Assembly (NCBI GenBank): GCA_964408085.1
Contig: CAYOYB010000006.1
Span: forward strand, 70,444-134,443
From: an uncultured Muribaculaceae bacterium
GTDB taxonomy: Bacteria > Bacillota_I > Bacilli_A > RF39 > UBA660
DNA: 64,000 bases
Reading direction: 5' to 3'
The first letter of the stretch is position 1. The number at the start of each line of letters is the position of its first letter. The position numbers and the translations under genes were made by a program. The notes under the pieces are model-generated. The model was not told where the DNA came from. It was given only the letters and a program-made list of their open reading frames with translations, and made no database searches. Shown one piece after another: positions 60,895-64,000 of the stretch.

Positions 60895-61743
60895 TTATTC
60901 TCTTTCAATAGGACAAGTAGTACACCTAAAGGCTCCACCATCTTTAGCAGTTTGTGTTAAATTGATTGGTATTATATTTAAATTAAATTTTCTTAATTCA
61001 CTTTCAATTCTTTTATGGTTTGAATTCATTATGATTGTGTTAGAATCTATAACAAAAACATTCGTAGCCAACTCAAATTGCTCTTGTTCAGTTACTTCAA
61101 TCTTGTTAAATTTATCAAGCAATTCATAGGATTCTTTTTCTAGACCATCTTTGTATATTAGAGCTAAATTAGGATTTATAATTGTAAATACTACATCTAA
61201 ATGTAAAAATTTTGGTTTTAATTTTAGTGGTACAATTGAATAATCTTCTCCTAGAACATTATTTAAAAATCTAACTCCTTCCATAGTAGTTCTCTCACTA
61301 ATTCCTACATAAATAGTTTTATTATCAACTATTATATCTCCACCTTCTAAATAAATATTAGATGGTACTTTAATTATCTTAGTTGATTCTACTTGATCAA
61401 TTATTTTATTCCAACCATTTATTGCTAATTTTCTATTTTCTTTTTTCATATTAGATATAAAAAATTTATCTCCAATTACAAAAGCTAAATCTCTAGTAAA
61501 CATTTGTCCTTTTGCACCATCAACTTGTTCTGCTACCAATAAATTAATTTCATGTTTTTTTAATTCATCCCAAAAATTTTTTTGCTCTTCTAATATTTCT
61601 TCTTTAGTTGGAACCCCACCATTTTCAGCATAATATTTAATTGTTTCATTATTAAGAGCTAAATTAGAAGAATCAAAATAGTTAGCACTTGATACTACAA
61701 CAGTTTTCAATTTACTATACTCATTATTTATATTTATTCTCAT
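60895..61743 (-). CDS. Guanidino-group modifying enzyme superfamily protein (DDAH / amidinotransferase / arginine deiminase-like)
   Basis: 282 aa. MFTRDLAFVI, YLEGGDIIV, FLHLDVVF and the C-terminal nucleophile motif DGGAFRCTTCPI. It has its own TTGAAT...TGATATAAT promoter and a GGAGGT RBS. Confidence 0.7.
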   Translation of the reverse strand: MRININNEYSKLKTVVVSSANYFDSSNLALNNETIKYYAENGGVPTKEEILEEQKNFWDELKKHEINLLVAEQVDGAKGQMFTRDLAFVIGDKFFISNMKKENRKLAINGWNKIIDQVESTKIIKVPSNIYLEGGDIIVDNKTIYVGISERTTMEGVRFLNNVLGEDYSIVPLKLKPKFLHLDVVFTIINPNLALIYKDGLEKESYELLDKFNKIEVTEQEQFELATNVFVIDSNTIIMNSNHKRIESELRKFNLNIIPINLTQTAKDGGAFRCTTCPIERE

Positions 61744-61846
61744 AATTATATACCTCCAAAATTTATATATATTATATCATAGGAAAATAAAAAGCATTCA
61801 ATATGATGTTAATTTTTGATATTTTTTAATTAATACTTATACAAGA

Positions 61847-61879
61847 ATAGATGAGAAATTAAAAGCTATTCTCACCTAT
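61847..61879 (-). terminator. Probable (weak) terminator after the reverse transcriptase gene
   Basis: Minus-strand RNA reads AUAGGUGAGAA-(11 nt)-UUCUCAUCUAU, an 11-bp stem with one G.U pair. The interrupted U tract UUCUUGU follows. Confidence 0.45.
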
Positions 61880-61942
61880 TTACAAAATAATTTATTTTAC
61901 AAAATCTAATATGATTATTCCATATAAAAATTTCCAAATCAT

Positions 61943-63538
61943 TTAATTACCATTATTTTTTTTGTTATATTCCTTTATAATATGTTCAACAAACAAATCA
62001 TTACAATTAATTTTCAAATCCTTTATAAATGGTCTATTTTCAGATTCACTCAGCCCATTAAGTACAATTCTTATAATTTGTCTTTTCTCCCAATTATCTG
62101 CTCTTAAATAATAATCCTTTATTTCTAAAATTTCTCCTCTAGTAAAATTAAATCCAATTTGTTCTAATATTGTACGTCCTATATAAATACCTGAGTTCCT
62201 TTTTAAACTTCTAAAAAAATCAAATAGAATTTTCTTTTCTTCATTATTACTGCAATCAAATAGATTAACTATACTAATCAATATATATTCAGGTACATTA
62301 AAATCATTTAACCAATATTCAAACTTAGATAATATAGAGGCATAATCTTTTTTATCTATATACTCTTTGTGTTTTAATATTACATCAGAATAATATGGAA
62401 TAAATTGTGGATATTTTTTTAAAATATCTGGAAATTGAACTAAATATTTAAATTTACTTTTAGCAACTATTATTTTTATCGTTCTTGTAACATCCAATGG
62501 ATCAATAATCATTTCTTTATTTAGTTTATCTAATAATATATTCTCATCCTCATTCTTTAACCTATTAACCTCACTTTGACTAAGTTTTCTAAATTTTGTT
62601 GGAACTACGCCAGAATACCCTCTTATTATTTCAAATAAACCTTCTTTATCACTTGATTTATTTTTACTTATTTTATCATAATAGTTTGAAATATCTCTGA
62701 ATTTTGTTTTACTTAAATTTATCGATAATCCATGCTTATTTAATATTTTAACAAACATTGTAATAATTCTATTAGCTTCATTTGAATCTGCAGCAAAAAA
62801 TCTGTAATCATCTACAAATCTACAAAATTTAACATTGTTTGATATCAAAAAGTTATCAATTTCTATTAAAAAGGCTTCTGCTAATATTCTAGATGCATTG
62901 GACCCAACAGGTAAACCATAAGAATCTCTATTAGCCCAAAACAATAACAACTGATCAATAGTATCTATTATTCTTTTATCAATTGTAGATATAGATAATA
63001 AAGTTGAATTTAATCTATGTATATTTAGTCTATCATAAAAATTTGAAATATCACACTCTATTATTATTTTATATTTTTTTCTAGAAGACAAATCTCGATA
63101 ATGTTTTTTAAAGGAAGAATAATTATATTTTTTATTAAATAACACACCTTTTTCATTAGGACAATATCTATATGAAAAAGCAATAGTTTTACCCACTCTT
63201 TCTCTTTCTACATTTGGTGCAATCAAACATACTAATGATAAATATTTTACTTCATCAATGATATCAATTAAAGCACATTTTCTAAAATCAAAATTATTTT
63301 TTTTAGGTACAAGCATATGAGAAATTTTATTTATTTTTAATTGTTCAAAATTACCATTATGATTGATTATATTATCTAAAATTGAAACAACTACATTAAT
63401 TACTTGATTCTGAAATTCTTTATCCTTTAAAAAATTTATTTCAAAGGGTTTTCTAAATAAAGAGACATCAGTACACCCTTCTAAAATTATATTAGCAATA
63501 GCTATTTTTACACATTTTCTTATTTCATTTCTTTTCAT
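61943..63538 (-). CDS. Reverse transcriptase, stand-alone, with a ~250-aa all-helical C-terminal extension (UG/Abi-like, class unassigned)
   Basis: 531 aa. RT motifs in order: HMLVPKKNNFDFRKCALI (1/2), IIIECDISNFYDRLN (A, Asp163), GLPVGSNASRILAEAFL (B), FCRFVDDYRFFA (C, VDD at nt 62807-62815), GLSINLSKTKF (D/E). AGGAGA RBS. Confidence 0.85.
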   Translation of the reverse strand: MKRNEIRKCVKIAIANIILEGCTDVSLFRKPFEINFLKDKEFQNQVINVVVSILDNIINHNGNFEQLKINKISHMLVPKKNNFDFRKCALIDIIDEVKYLSLVCLIAPNVERERVGKTIAFSYRYCPNEKGVLFNKKYNYSSFKKHYRDLSSRKKYKIIIECDISNFYDRLNIHRLNSTLLSISTIDKRIIDTIDQLLLFWANRDSYGLPVGSNASRILAEAFLIEIDNFLISNNVKFCRFVDDYRFFAADSNEANRIITMFVKILNKHGLSINLSKTKFRDISNYYDKISKNKSSDKEGLFEIIRGYSGVVPTKFRKLSQSEVNRLKNEDENILLDKLNKEMIIDPLDVTRTIKIIVAKSKFKYLVQFPDILKKYPQFIPYYSDVILKHKEYIDKKDYASILSKFEYWLNDFNVPEYILISIVNLFDCSNNEEKKILFDFFRSLKRNSGIYIGRTILEQIGFNFTRGEILEIKDYYLRADNWEKRQIIRIVLNGLSESENRPFIKDLKINCNDLFVEHIIKEYNKKNNGN

Positions 63539-63555
63539 TTTTATCTCCTACTACT

Positions 63556-63610
63556 AAAAAACGCCAGTACAAAAAATTATAAAATATAAGCCTGTACTAG
63601 CGTTTTTTTT
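63556..63610 (-). other. Large hairpin in the RT 5' leader (terminator/attenuator-like or RT-bound RNA element)
   Basis: Minus-strand RNA reads AAAAAACGCUAGUAC-(21-nt loop)-GUACUGGCGUUUUUU. The 10-bp GC-containing core includes one G.U pair. On the plus strand that position is a C-A mismatch, so the element is minus-sense. It ends 12 nt before the RBS. Confidence 0.55.
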
Positions 63611-63622
63611 CTTTTTGGCTAT

Positions 63623-63631
63623 ATTATAACA
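63623..63631 (-). promoter_or_regulatory. Extended -10 promoter element upstream of the RT leader
   Basis: Minus strand reads TGTTATAAT (reverse complement of 63623-63631). No good -35. Confidence 0.4.
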
Positions 63632-63782
63632 CTATTTTTCAAAATTTGATATATTTTTTTATATAATTTTTAAATTTGTTATATTTTTTATAAAATAGGA
63701 TTATATATCACGTTAATATATTTTTTATCATCATTTTTTATATAATTACTATATAATTTTATACTACTAATATTTAGCTAAT

Positions 63783-63812
63783 AAAAAAATATCCCAGTCT
63801 TTCGACTGGGAT
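63783..63812 (-). terminator. Strong rho-independent terminator ~250 nt upstream of the RT
   Basis: Minus strand reads AUCCCAGUC-GAAA-GACUGGGAU (9-bp stem, GNRA loop) followed by AUUUUUUUAU. Confidence 0.8.
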
Positions 63813-63900
63813 TTCAGGGGGCGGTTAGAGTTCACGCACTTCAAAGTTTAATTAAGTACTTTTACCTTTATTTTAATAAGATTTAAAATACTTAAATTTA
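63783..63900 (-). ncRNA. Candidate small/non-coding RNA 3' portion (C-rich single-stranded segment plus terminator)
   Basis: No ORF in any frame between 63813 and 64000. A GC-rich island GAAGUGCGUGAACUCUAACCGCCCCCUGAA sits immediately 5' of the terminator, within otherwise >85% AT sequence. The 5' end is undefined and may lie beyond the window. Confidence 0.3.
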
Positions 63901-64000
63901 ACAAGTATTATATGGATTTTAAAATTTTGGTAGTTGAAAAAACAATATAGCAATTTATAAATTGCATTAAAAACAAATGTATGGTATTATTTTGTTAGCT

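Follow-up and report, generated by a model that had tools for sequence, protein, structure and literature searches.

The non-coding sequence upstream of the DRT8-type reverse transcriptase (RT) gene at the end of the window (the whole 64,000-nucleotide stretch of DNA that was analysed) contains two RNA-like structures, which are genuine, conserved features of the RT strand, and neither of them is RT-specific. The structure nearest to the RT gene belongs to a leader unit that is specific for the family of the RT host and recurs ahead of unrelated defence genes. The second structure is part of a region, 63783 to 63937, which is read from sequence comparisons as an attachment-site junction, being the scar of a mobile island at the end of a small-RNA gene. 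As a whole, the region is probably best explained as an island-hot-spot junction combined with a shared cargo expression unit, and not as an RNA locus dedicated to the RT.

The RT (531 aa, 61943 to 63538, minus strand) is the cargo gene downstream of the leader. It matches the PADLOC Drt8 model over its full length (E = 7e-118) and Pfam RVT_1 with E = 1.4e-16, the next PADLOC models being UG21, UG19, UG9 and Drt4; the gene that follows it in the window is DDAH-like. The initial annotation described positions 63539 to 64000 as free of ORFs, and indeed no ORF of 30 aa or more is found there. When the 884 nt of contig past the window are included, the non-coding gap upstream of the RT is 686 nt, bordered on its far side by a divergent gene (DUF3892, 70 aa). 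The two RNA structures that had been proposed on the RT strand are both present, at 63556 to 63610 and at 63783 to 63812, and both fold better than shuffled sequence.

The leader hairpin (63556 to 63610, minus strand) consists of an A-tract, CGCTAGTACAGG, CTTAT...ATAAT, TTTTTGTACTGGCG and U6, and it is shaped like an intrinsic terminator, with a stem of about 18 bp followed by the U-run. Its core stem spans 63562 to 63602 and is lengthened by A/U runs to the outer coordinates. On the RT strand, the folding energy is -22.1 kcal/mol (z = -5.2, with none of 200 shuffled sequences folding as well), as compared with -16.0 kcal/mol on the other strand. The position given in the initial annotation is correct, but the 21-nt loop is not, as an inner 5-bp stem was overlooked and the loop is about 3 to 7 nt. 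The G.U asymmetry, taken there as the mark of an RNA of the RT strand, is real and recurs across 28 copies of the hairpin, in which five positions have G.U or U.G as their most frequent pair, invariantly or nearly so at three of them. In these 28 copies, 88.9% of the cells are paired, against 41 to 54% when the partners are slid, as counted with a hand-supplied structure, register shifts having defeated RNAalifold on the raw hairpin alignment. The covariation is thin, because most pairs are invariant and 2 of the 18 pairs vary on both sides.

The hairpin is embedded in a sequence-conserved unit, made up of a TGnTATAAT promoter, the U-run hairpin and a strong ribosome-binding site, and the alignment of 28 to 30 copies gives the block consensus GTAGTAAGGAAGTGA. 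The Shine-Dalgarno sequence AGGAG (63545 to 63549, minus strand), located 6 nt 5' of the ATG, is the end part of this block. The extended -10 promoter TGTTATAAT is located at 63623 to 63631 (minus strand), with its first T 28 nt ahead of the point at which the hairpin core motif begins; from this spacing, transcription would be predicted to start roughly 10 nt before the hairpin. In 19 of 30 copies, a TGnTAnnnT motif starts 21 to 29 nt (mostly 26 to 27 nt) ahead of the hairpin core, and the other 11 mostly have a reading frame closing 6 to 18 nt before the hairpin. The hairpin is indeed the leader of the RT, as the initial annotation has it.

The distribution of the leader was determined with the covariance model R1, which scores 82 bits at the window hairpin. 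It matches 76 of 401 genomes of the family, in 66 of 214 genera, with one to four copies each. In a class-wide sample of 300 genomes, all R1 matches fall within the family of the RT host, and the hairpin is found in none of the sampled genomes from other families. In all 30 loci that were read, a gene follows the hairpin on the same strand, and in 24 of them it starts 54 to 70 nt after the hairpin start. Among these genes are those for a ResIII helicase, DUF3644, KAP NTPases, Shedu SduA, PHP plus AAA, AAA_13 and Cas9; apart from the window itself, none of the 30 loci has an RT behind the hairpin. The genome of the window has a second copy (C4:152604-152666), in which the stem base carries a compensatory GGGC/GCCC change, and in three other genomes (G181, G148 and G173) two to three copies on a single contig mark off consecutive sets of genes. 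A viral origin of the hairpin was also considered and dropped, since its exact pattern has no match among the IMG/VR viral contigs.

The second conserved element is a module of 124 nt, TCAACTACC...TAACCGCCCCCTGA, at 63813 to 63937 of the minus strand. About 15 of 251 family genomes, belonging to different genera, carry it next to differing neighbours, at 76 to 95% identity and with sharp edges. The length is 124 nt without gaps in 11 of the 12 full-length copies, the remaining one being one base short, and, as a repeat would, several copies fall where contigs end. Conservation stops exactly at the 9-mer CCCCCTGAA (63813 to 63821, minus strand), the proposed crossover core. It is followed by a variable terminator (63783 to 63812, minus strand), a GC hairpin of the form ATCCCAGTC-GAAA-GACTGGGAT plus a T-run. 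A terminator scan confirms the 9-bp GNRA-capped terminator of the initial annotation: the site 63791-63812, with a 9-bp stem, a GAAA loop and T7, is the only terminator-like site in 61500-64000 (shuffle mean 0.2). A different hairpin follows the core in every genome compared. An AT-rich spacer (63632 to 63782, minus strand) separates this terminator from the cargo promoter, and the distance of about 200 nt between core and leader hairpin is also seen in G148 and G173.

Several other origins of the C-rich piece were examined. ARAGORN detects no tRNA or tmRNA fragment. A tracrRNA, suggested by the motif UUAAAAUAAAGG, was rejected, as Cas9 is missing from 13 of the 15 carrier genomes and is encoded on other contigs in the remaining two. 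On both strands of the module, small ORFs have neither a conserved frame nor a ribosome-binding site, and BLAST searches for repeats of the whole region elsewhere in the genome return AT-rich noise only. The Rfam search that the initial annotation suggested was carried out permissively, with E up to 10 for the window end and locus L003 and up to 1 for the other loci; it covered the ends of both the window and the contig, together with the recG small-RNA locus and three related loci, and gives nothing relevant. The perfect 16-bp palindrome GCAATTTATAAATTGC (63950 to 63965), proposed in the initial annotation as a candidate operator or stem, is outside every conserved element and is missing from all other module copies; such palindromes occur at chance frequency (153 genome-wide, and 10 in contig C6 against 6 to 13 in shuffles).

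The core is identical to the 3' tail of a conserved, unannotated small RNA of about 95 nt, encoded downstream of recG. At least eight genomes from several genera have this small RNA, and its AAACCCCCTGAA tail is invariant among them; at occupied sites it retains its promoter, body, core and a terminator. The last 35 nt or so of the module resemble the 3' part of this small RNA, including TAACCG and CCCCCTGAA. Direct-repeat cores flank islands in G002 and G001, where 0.07 would be expected per locus. In G002, a relative of the same genus, the cores (L106 1194 and 14543) enclose a 13-kb mobilisable element with integrase, relaxase and defence cargo. The order of features is recG, the small RNA and core 1, followed by the integrase, the Mob_Pre relaxase, the AAA_25 ATPase, a zeta toxin, the leader hairpin ahead of a helicase, and ToxN, and then by core 2 and a DDAH-like gene of 282 aa, which is the gene that follows the RT in the window. 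In G001, the cores (L107 1042 and 4017) enclose an island of 3 kb. This architecture recurs in part in other relatives. A small-RNA match (weak in G254) with an adjoining integrase on the opposite strand precedes the module by 8 to 9 kb in G175 and G254, so that in these two genomes, as in G002, the integrase adjoins the small-RNA end. In G069 and G085, the integrase is 4 to 10 kb before the module and the small RNA is not detected, and in G271 the small RNA precedes the module by 2.4 kb, an interval that contains no integrase. All sites read in the relatives are occupied, and no unoccupied target site was found among them.

In the genome of the window, three cores followed by hairpins are located on three different contigs. 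Contig C19 begins at a core, and contig C11 stops about 50 nt past the core that closes the recG small RNA. An integrase of the type seen in these elements was not found in this assembly, which is 90% complete (best tblastn identity 26%). As the island is split over contigs and its integrase is not found, the reading of the window copy as an attachment site draws on the relatives.

From the island architecture of the relatives, we infer recombination and the history of the window copy as follows. Integrative mobilisable elements, encoding a tyrosine integrase, a MobV-type relaxase and an AAA_25 ATPase, would insert into the 3' end of the small RNA gene downstream of recG, by crossover within the 9-mer CCCCCTGAA. 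The 124-nt module would then be the arm at the element end far from the integrase, and the GC hairpin after the core would be a flank from the target gene or from the next element in a tandem array. The window junction would abut a decayed neighbouring unit, here the RT, that retains only its cargo. Besides the missing integrase and the lack of an unoccupied site in the relatives read, three features count against this reading: the RT is preceded by the core and followed by the DDAH-like gene, but a second core does not come behind it, the core of 9 bp is short, and the module, having a -10-like TATAAT and a terminator, may still be transcribed.

It is conceivable, if rather improbable, that the region 63783 to 63937 instead encodes a separate small RNA that travels with the element and acts in trans; as a paralogue or mimic of the RNA encoded near recG, it would pair through the same C-rich tail with G-rich ribosome-binding sites. 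The -10-like TATAAT is at a conserved place, three of the four first copies compared have a terminator, the fixed 124-nt length points to constraint, and the similarity to the 3' part of the genuine small RNA would fit a paralogue. The CCGCCCCC tract, for which the initial annotation found no G-rich partner, is also unpaired in the folds. However, the -35 box and the TG extension are both missing, the module has no consensus fold (-1.9 kcal/mol, zero compensatory pairs) and no covariation, conservation stops exactly at the core, and the terminators are mutually unrelated. In addition, the module is always at the island end far from the integrase, and it has no Rfam match, RsaE included. Of the features of C-rich-seed small RNAs (RsaE/RoxS-like), it has the terminator, and it lacks the -35 box, the TG extension, the consensus fold, covariation and an Rfam match. 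The idea of a C-rich seed fits the recG-linked small RNA better than the window copy, and the fallback of the initial annotation, that the C-rich piece could be unrelated to the RT, is right.

Concerning the function of the leader, we infer that positions 63539 to 63631 would act as a cargo expression unit, in which an extended -10 promoter is followed by a long G.U-rich U-run hairpin, starting about 10 nt into the transcript, and a near-perfect ribosome-binding site. The best guess is that the hairpin would be a leaky intrinsic terminator, which would shield the gene from upstream transcription and keep the expression of defence genes low where these are costly or toxic, the strong ribosome-binding site serving the read-through transcripts. 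A promoter directly ahead of an efficient terminator is an odd arrangement, unless read-through is regulated.

A regulated switch in place of a passive terminator seems unlikely. In that case, the invariant CUAGUACAGGC / UUUUGUA part would be the binding site of a family-specific protein or small molecule, which would govern either read-through into whichever defence gene comes next or the stability of its mRNA. The primary sequence of the mid-stem is invariant over 66 genera, which is more than a terminator requires, and the hairpin is confined to one family and is on the strand of the gene in all loci read. As 19 of 30 copies have the promoter close by, at a constant distance, most transcripts must cross the hairpin. 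On the other hand, inspection by eye showed no alternative (antiterminator) pairing, a candidate gene for the partner was not found, the copies could be alike simply because a single cassette platform has recently spread with mobile elements, and the 11 promoterless copies mostly sit just past a stop codon, like plain terminators. Equally doubtful is the wider proposal that the hairpin is a common riboregulator under trans control, through which dozens of defence systems with no relation to each other (DRT8, Cas9, Shedu, KAP NTPases, AAA ATPases and others) would be gated, for instance by antitermination in response to infection. If this were true, the mobile elements would exchange cargo behind a universal 'socket', the hairpin switch.

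It is very unlikely that one or both structures are the dedicated ncRNA of DRT8, serving as template, primer or scaffold as in DRT2, DRT3, DRT9 and retrons, which was the reading favoured in the initial annotation. Both structures are directly upstream on the RT strand, as are the structured non-coding sequences of those systems (PMC13213688). DRT8 has no known RNA partner, and its mechanism is not established, such that an RNA partner is conceivable in principle (PMC13213688). The closest homologue with comparable context (L080, 74% identity) also has the hairpin and a CCCCCTG terminator upstream. It is, however, the only one of five homologues (64 to 74% identity) to have kept them; the other four have neither hairpin nor module, and other genes are found 30 to 120 nt upstream instead. 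This comparison is based on five loci, a single-protein scan of genome contigs having added only one. Across 76 genomes, the hairpin is found ahead of genes of many unrelated kinds, and the module occurs without the RT: no close RT homologue is present in any of 60 relatives, the one further match being a distant RT (32% identity), and the three module carriers among the 61 relatives searched for the RT (G004, G029 and G031) lack it. It is this distribution, with the structures absent near four of the five RT homologues and present without an RT, that makes a dedicated ncRNA unlikely; a lack of conservation next to homologous RTs had been named in the initial annotation itself as grounds for rejection. 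Unlike the ncRNAs of DRT2, DRT3, DRT9 and retrons, the window structures do not covary with the RT, are common to non-RT genes and have no template-like motif, nor do they match Rfam. Drt4 is among the nearest PADLOC relatives of the RT, and DRT4 operates without template RNA (PMC13213688).

That the leader hairpin is a DNA-level recombination site for swapping defence cassettes, of the attC, transposon-end or oriT kind, is just as hard to credit: one sequence of about 75 nt is joined to many unrelated genes, the conserved block stops a few bases short of the start codon, two to three copies delimit the successive gene sets mentioned above and the elements encode a relaxase, but the conserved G.U pairs become C-A mismatches on the opposite strand, the block holds expression signals (promoter and ribosome-binding site), no recombinase is consistently adjacent, and a different repeat, CCCCCTGAA, marks the island ends.

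DRT8 is a defence RT without a known mechanism, and ruling out the upstream structure as its RNA partner spares a wrong start. The reading as a hot spot implies that, in a family with small, AT-rich genomes, mobilisable elements accumulate together with their defence cargo beside recG, where a previously undescribed small RNA ends. In the same family, a conserved promoter-hairpin-RBS unit serves many different defence genes; should this unit prove to be regulated, a whole defence repertoire would have one common point of control. The R1 model and the CCCCCTGAA core are also cheap markers for defence cargo in genomes of this family.

The proposed elements can be compared with the integrative mobilisable elements (IMEs) of Firmicutes, which insert into the 3' ends of tRNA, tmRNA and other genes (PMC5704250, PMC5357655). 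The shared features, as read in the relatives, are a tyrosine integrase at one end, a MobV/Mob_Pre relaxase, short direct repeats at both ends, restoration of the 3' end of the target gene by the element, tandem accretion with decayed remnants, and defence and toxin-antitoxin cargo. Here, in contrast, the proposed target is an unannotated small RNA of about 95 nt downstream of recG and not a tRNA or protein gene, and the window copy has no integrase in the assembly. A conserved small-RNA gene is also the landing site for varied horizontally acquired islands at the ryeA/ryeB (SdsR) locus of Salmonella, which is an insertion hot spot according to the account of Balbontin et al. (2008) given in PMC3333887. 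As far as that account goes, the phylum, the RNA and the elements are different, and the proposed crossover core in the present case coincides with the C-rich single-stranded tail of the recG-linked RNA.

The leader resembles integron attC sites and cassette arrays in being a conserved, hairpin-forming element 5' of successive unrelated, often defence, cassettes. In contrast to attC, most leader copies have their own promoter, R/L box symmetry of the attC kind is absent, and the G.U pairs point to RNA. In type III toxin-antitoxin/abortive-infection loci, the toxI-toxN terminator is located between the antitoxin RNA and the toxic gene, and in Bacillus aprE and ermC a 5' stem-loop with a strong RBS acts as an mRNA stabiliser. 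In common with these systems, the leader combines a stable promoter-proximal hairpin (whether or not a U-run is present) with a strong ribosome-binding site behind it, and it is placed ahead of defence or toxic genes. It differs from them in having no repeat RNA or antitoxin, and in that one sequence-conserved hairpin precedes dozens of unrelated genes across 66 genera.

The C-rich DNA upstream of the DRT8-type reverse transcriptase (RT; 61943-63538, minus strand, 531 aa, Pfam RVT_1, full-length PADLOC Drt8 match with E = 7e-118) is probably an attachment-site junction, and the hairpin close to the RT start is a generic leader of defence cargo in this bacterial family. The matches of the RT-upstream region in relatives form two separate pieces, a 124-nt module (63813-63937) and the leader hairpin (63556-63610) with its RBS, and parts of the region are also found in genomes without a close RT homologue, as seen in a DNA search of 60 relatives.

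When read past the end of the window (70444-134443 of contig C6 of the source genome), beyond which the contig extends for 884 nt, the non-coding gap upstream of the RT measures 686 nt, up to a divergent 70-aa DUF3892 gene, which is followed by the 3'-terminal part of a Nudix gene; the RT strand has no ORF of at least 30 aa ahead of the RT. The downstream genes are ordinary-looking, encoding a 282-aa DDAH/amidinotransferase-like protein, a GNAT fusion, a hybrid histidine kinase and a ZIP transporter. In the closest RT homologues (comparison of loci L080-L083), an AAA_15 ATPase of ~420 aa begins 4 nt after the RT, and in other homologues a 536-aa protein comes next. The RT of the window stands alone, with 200 nt to the next gene, and may therefore be an incomplete system. 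In a 2026 review, DRT8 is listed with a "dedicated mechanism not yet established", and no RNA partner is named (PMC13213688).

The module, running from TCAACTACC to ...TAACCGCCCCCTGA(A) (63937-63813), is present with 76-95% identity in ~15 of 251 family genomes, all of different genera and with varying flanking genes. It is 124 nt long and gap-free in 11 of the 12 full-length copies, with one base missing in the twelfth, and its conservation stops exactly after the 9-mer CCCCCTGAA (63813-63821), which is followed by a GC hairpin and T-run that are different in each genome. No consensus RNA fold was found for the module (-1.9 kcal/mol, zero compensatory pairs). Its first nine nucleotides are TCAACTACC, and most other copies have a second TCAACTACC 3 nt upstream, where it forms the 3' side of the terminator hairpin ahead of the module; the repeats may serve as arm-type binding sites. 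In our reading the element arm spans 63813-63937, crossover would take place in the 9-mer, and 63783-63812 is flank. The terminator hairpin (GGTAGTTGA...TCAACTACC-TTTT) precedes the module in all other full-length copies aligned, and in the source genome it is replaced by a ~540-nt piece with the opposite-strand DUF3892 gene (locus L003, 3385-3925, on the contig beyond the window).

The structures described in the initial annotation are largely genuine. The leader hairpin has a folding energy of -22.1 kcal/mol (z = -5.2) when read on the RT strand, compared with -16.0 kcal/mol on the opposite strand, the proposed terminator is the sole terminator-like site within 61500-64000 (63791-63812), and the C tract, predicted to be single-stranded, is without pairing in the computed folds. 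The 16-bp palindrome put forward as a candidate operator or stem has only chance frequency (153 in the genome; 10 on contig C6 versus 6-13 in shuffles) and does not accompany any other copy of the module.

The last ~35 nt of the module are similar to the 3' part of a previously undescribed small RNA, the apparent landing site of the islands. The scan of the source genome for CCCCCTGAA finds one further copy with a hairpin after it (C11:73256), at the 3' end of an ORF-less unit of ~95 nt directly downstream of recG (C11:~73200-73295; L085 1901-1995), having a TTGACT-17-TATAAT promoter, a 5' hairpin and a terminator; contig C11 stops ~50 nt past this core. The small RNA has no Rfam family, and it is kept in at least eight genomes of several genera. 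Its single-stranded tail (AAACCCCCUGAA; ...AAACCCCCTGAA) is invariant, the terminators after the tail vary, and the stem shows a compensatory change (GCUCU/AGAGC versus ACUCU/AGAGU). A third CCCCCTGAA copy, followed by a hairpin, is the exact start of contig C19. This 2.7-kb contig (C19:1-2749) continues with a TGATATAAT promoter, a Nudix-box gene, two further ORFs and a fourth that is cut off by the contig end, and it probably belongs to the same island array.

In G002, a relative of the same genus, recG, the small RNA and core 1 are followed by a tyrosine integrase (opposite strand), a Mob_Pre relaxase, an AAA_25 ATPase, a zeta toxin, an inverted repeat with promoter and hairpin before a ResIII helicase, and ToxN; then come core 2 with its hairpin, a 96-aa ORF and the 282-aa DDAH-like gene. 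The latter is the gene after the RT in the window, and the promoter regions of both align. In G001, two cores enclose a 3-kb island (methylase/specificity fusion). The second-core hairpin, GAGTCAGC-NAAA-GCTGGCTC, is shared by G001, G002 and G004, as expected for the displaced original terminator of the target. G175 and G254 have the small RNA (a weak match in G254) adjoining an opposite-strand integrase, and the module 8-9 kb further on; in G069 and G085 an integrase precedes the module by 4-10 kb, and no small RNA was detected in these loci. In G271 the small RNA is 2.4 kb before the module, without an integrase in between. The several cores and the integrase fragments or pseudogenes in G181, G148 and G173 suggest tandem decayed elements. 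No empty attachment site was found in the relatives read.

The hairpin after the core in the window (ATCCCAGTC...) resembles the terminators after core 1 in G002, G003 and G012, which are seen as element-supplied. The cargo promoter and leader hairpin lie ~200 nt past the core hairpin, as in G148 and G173, and similarly in L080, where core, terminator and hairpin precede the RT in that order and an AAA_15 ATPase and then an integrase follow it. From this matching layout and the element-type terminator, the window's arrangement looks like two elements joined at the core, the right arm of one meeting the left end of another that carries DRT8 and would have lost its ATPase, integrase and distal core. 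This two-element history remains a model, since no IME-type integrase was found in the assembly (90% complete) and the island is divided among contigs C11, C19 and C6.

The leader hairpin with its RBS is found by BLAST in 35 of 251 genomes. The block common to 30 copies is (A-rich) GCGCTAGTACAGG-CTTAT...ATAAG-TTTTTGTATTGGCG-T(5-8)-GTAGTAAGGAAGTGA-N(3-8)-ATG. With an 18-pair structure supplied by hand, 88.9% of the cells are paired; shifting the partners by 1-3 columns lowers this to 41-54%. At five positions the pair seen most often is G.U or U.G, which is (nearly) invariant at three (13:50, 20:43 and 21:42), so the gene strand is the folding strand. Covariation is thin, both sides having changed in only 2 of the 18 pairs, both in the inner stem; stem-base variants that retain pairing are GCGC/GGCG, GCGC/GCGC with a bulge, GTGC/GCAC and GGGC/GCCC. 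The last is found in a second, divergent promoter-hairpin-RBS copy of the source genome (C4:152604-152666, minus), the gene behind which encodes a 319-aa protein of unknown family. The covariance model of the hairpin (R1) matches 76 of 401 family genomes in 66 of 214 genera, with 1-4 copies per genome, and a sample of 300 genomes from the whole class gave nine with a match, every one of them from the same family. The exact hairpin pattern has no match in IMG/VR viral contigs.

A same-strand gene follows the hairpin in all 30 loci, starting 54-70 nt from the hairpin beginning in 24 of them. These genes are of defence type and mutually unrelated, hence the assignment as a generic leader: ResIII/DEAD helicase, DUF3644, two KAP NTPases, Shedu SduA, PHP plus AAA proteins, AAA_13, further P-loop proteins, Cas9 (G193) and, in the window, DRT8. 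In the Cas9 locus (L071, G193:C39), a likely tracrRNA (...GUUAAAAUAAAGCCUUUGGCC...GACCGUUAGAUGGUC-U7) lies on the strand opposite cas9, in the interval from the leader hairpin to the start of cas9. Many leader copies also have an imperfect palindrome of ~55 nt upstream, ATGACAnnATGACA...TGTCATnnTGTCAT (for example L073 6171-6231; also L003 3925-3975, on the contig beyond the window). It recurs some 30 nt ahead of the cargo promoter and also, in reversed orientation, in the stretch separating cargo genes from the 124-nt module, and it may act as an operator or as an accessory site for recombination.

An extended -10 (TGnTATAAT) is present in 19 of the 30 copies, its first base being 21-29 nt (mostly 26-27 nt) upstream of the hairpin core, and this spacing predicts a transcript start ~10 nt before the hairpin. 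It is missing in 11 copies, and in most of these the hairpin sits 6-18 nt behind the end of a reading frame, like a plain terminator. We tentatively favour a putative role as a leaky intrinsic terminator or insulator, combined with a strong RBS, holding the defence cargo low. A trans-controlled attenuator, to which the invariant primary sequence, the constant distance of the promoter and the restriction to one family point, seems rather unlikely, a 5' mRNA stabiliser is unlikely, and a DNA-level recombination site is improbable. An RT-specific ncRNA is most improbable: the initial annotation had considered an RNA dedicated to the RT, and among five RT homologues (64-74% identity) only L080 is preceded by the hairpin and a CCCCCTG terminator, and in the remaining four unrelated genes end 30-120 nt before the RT, which argues against it.
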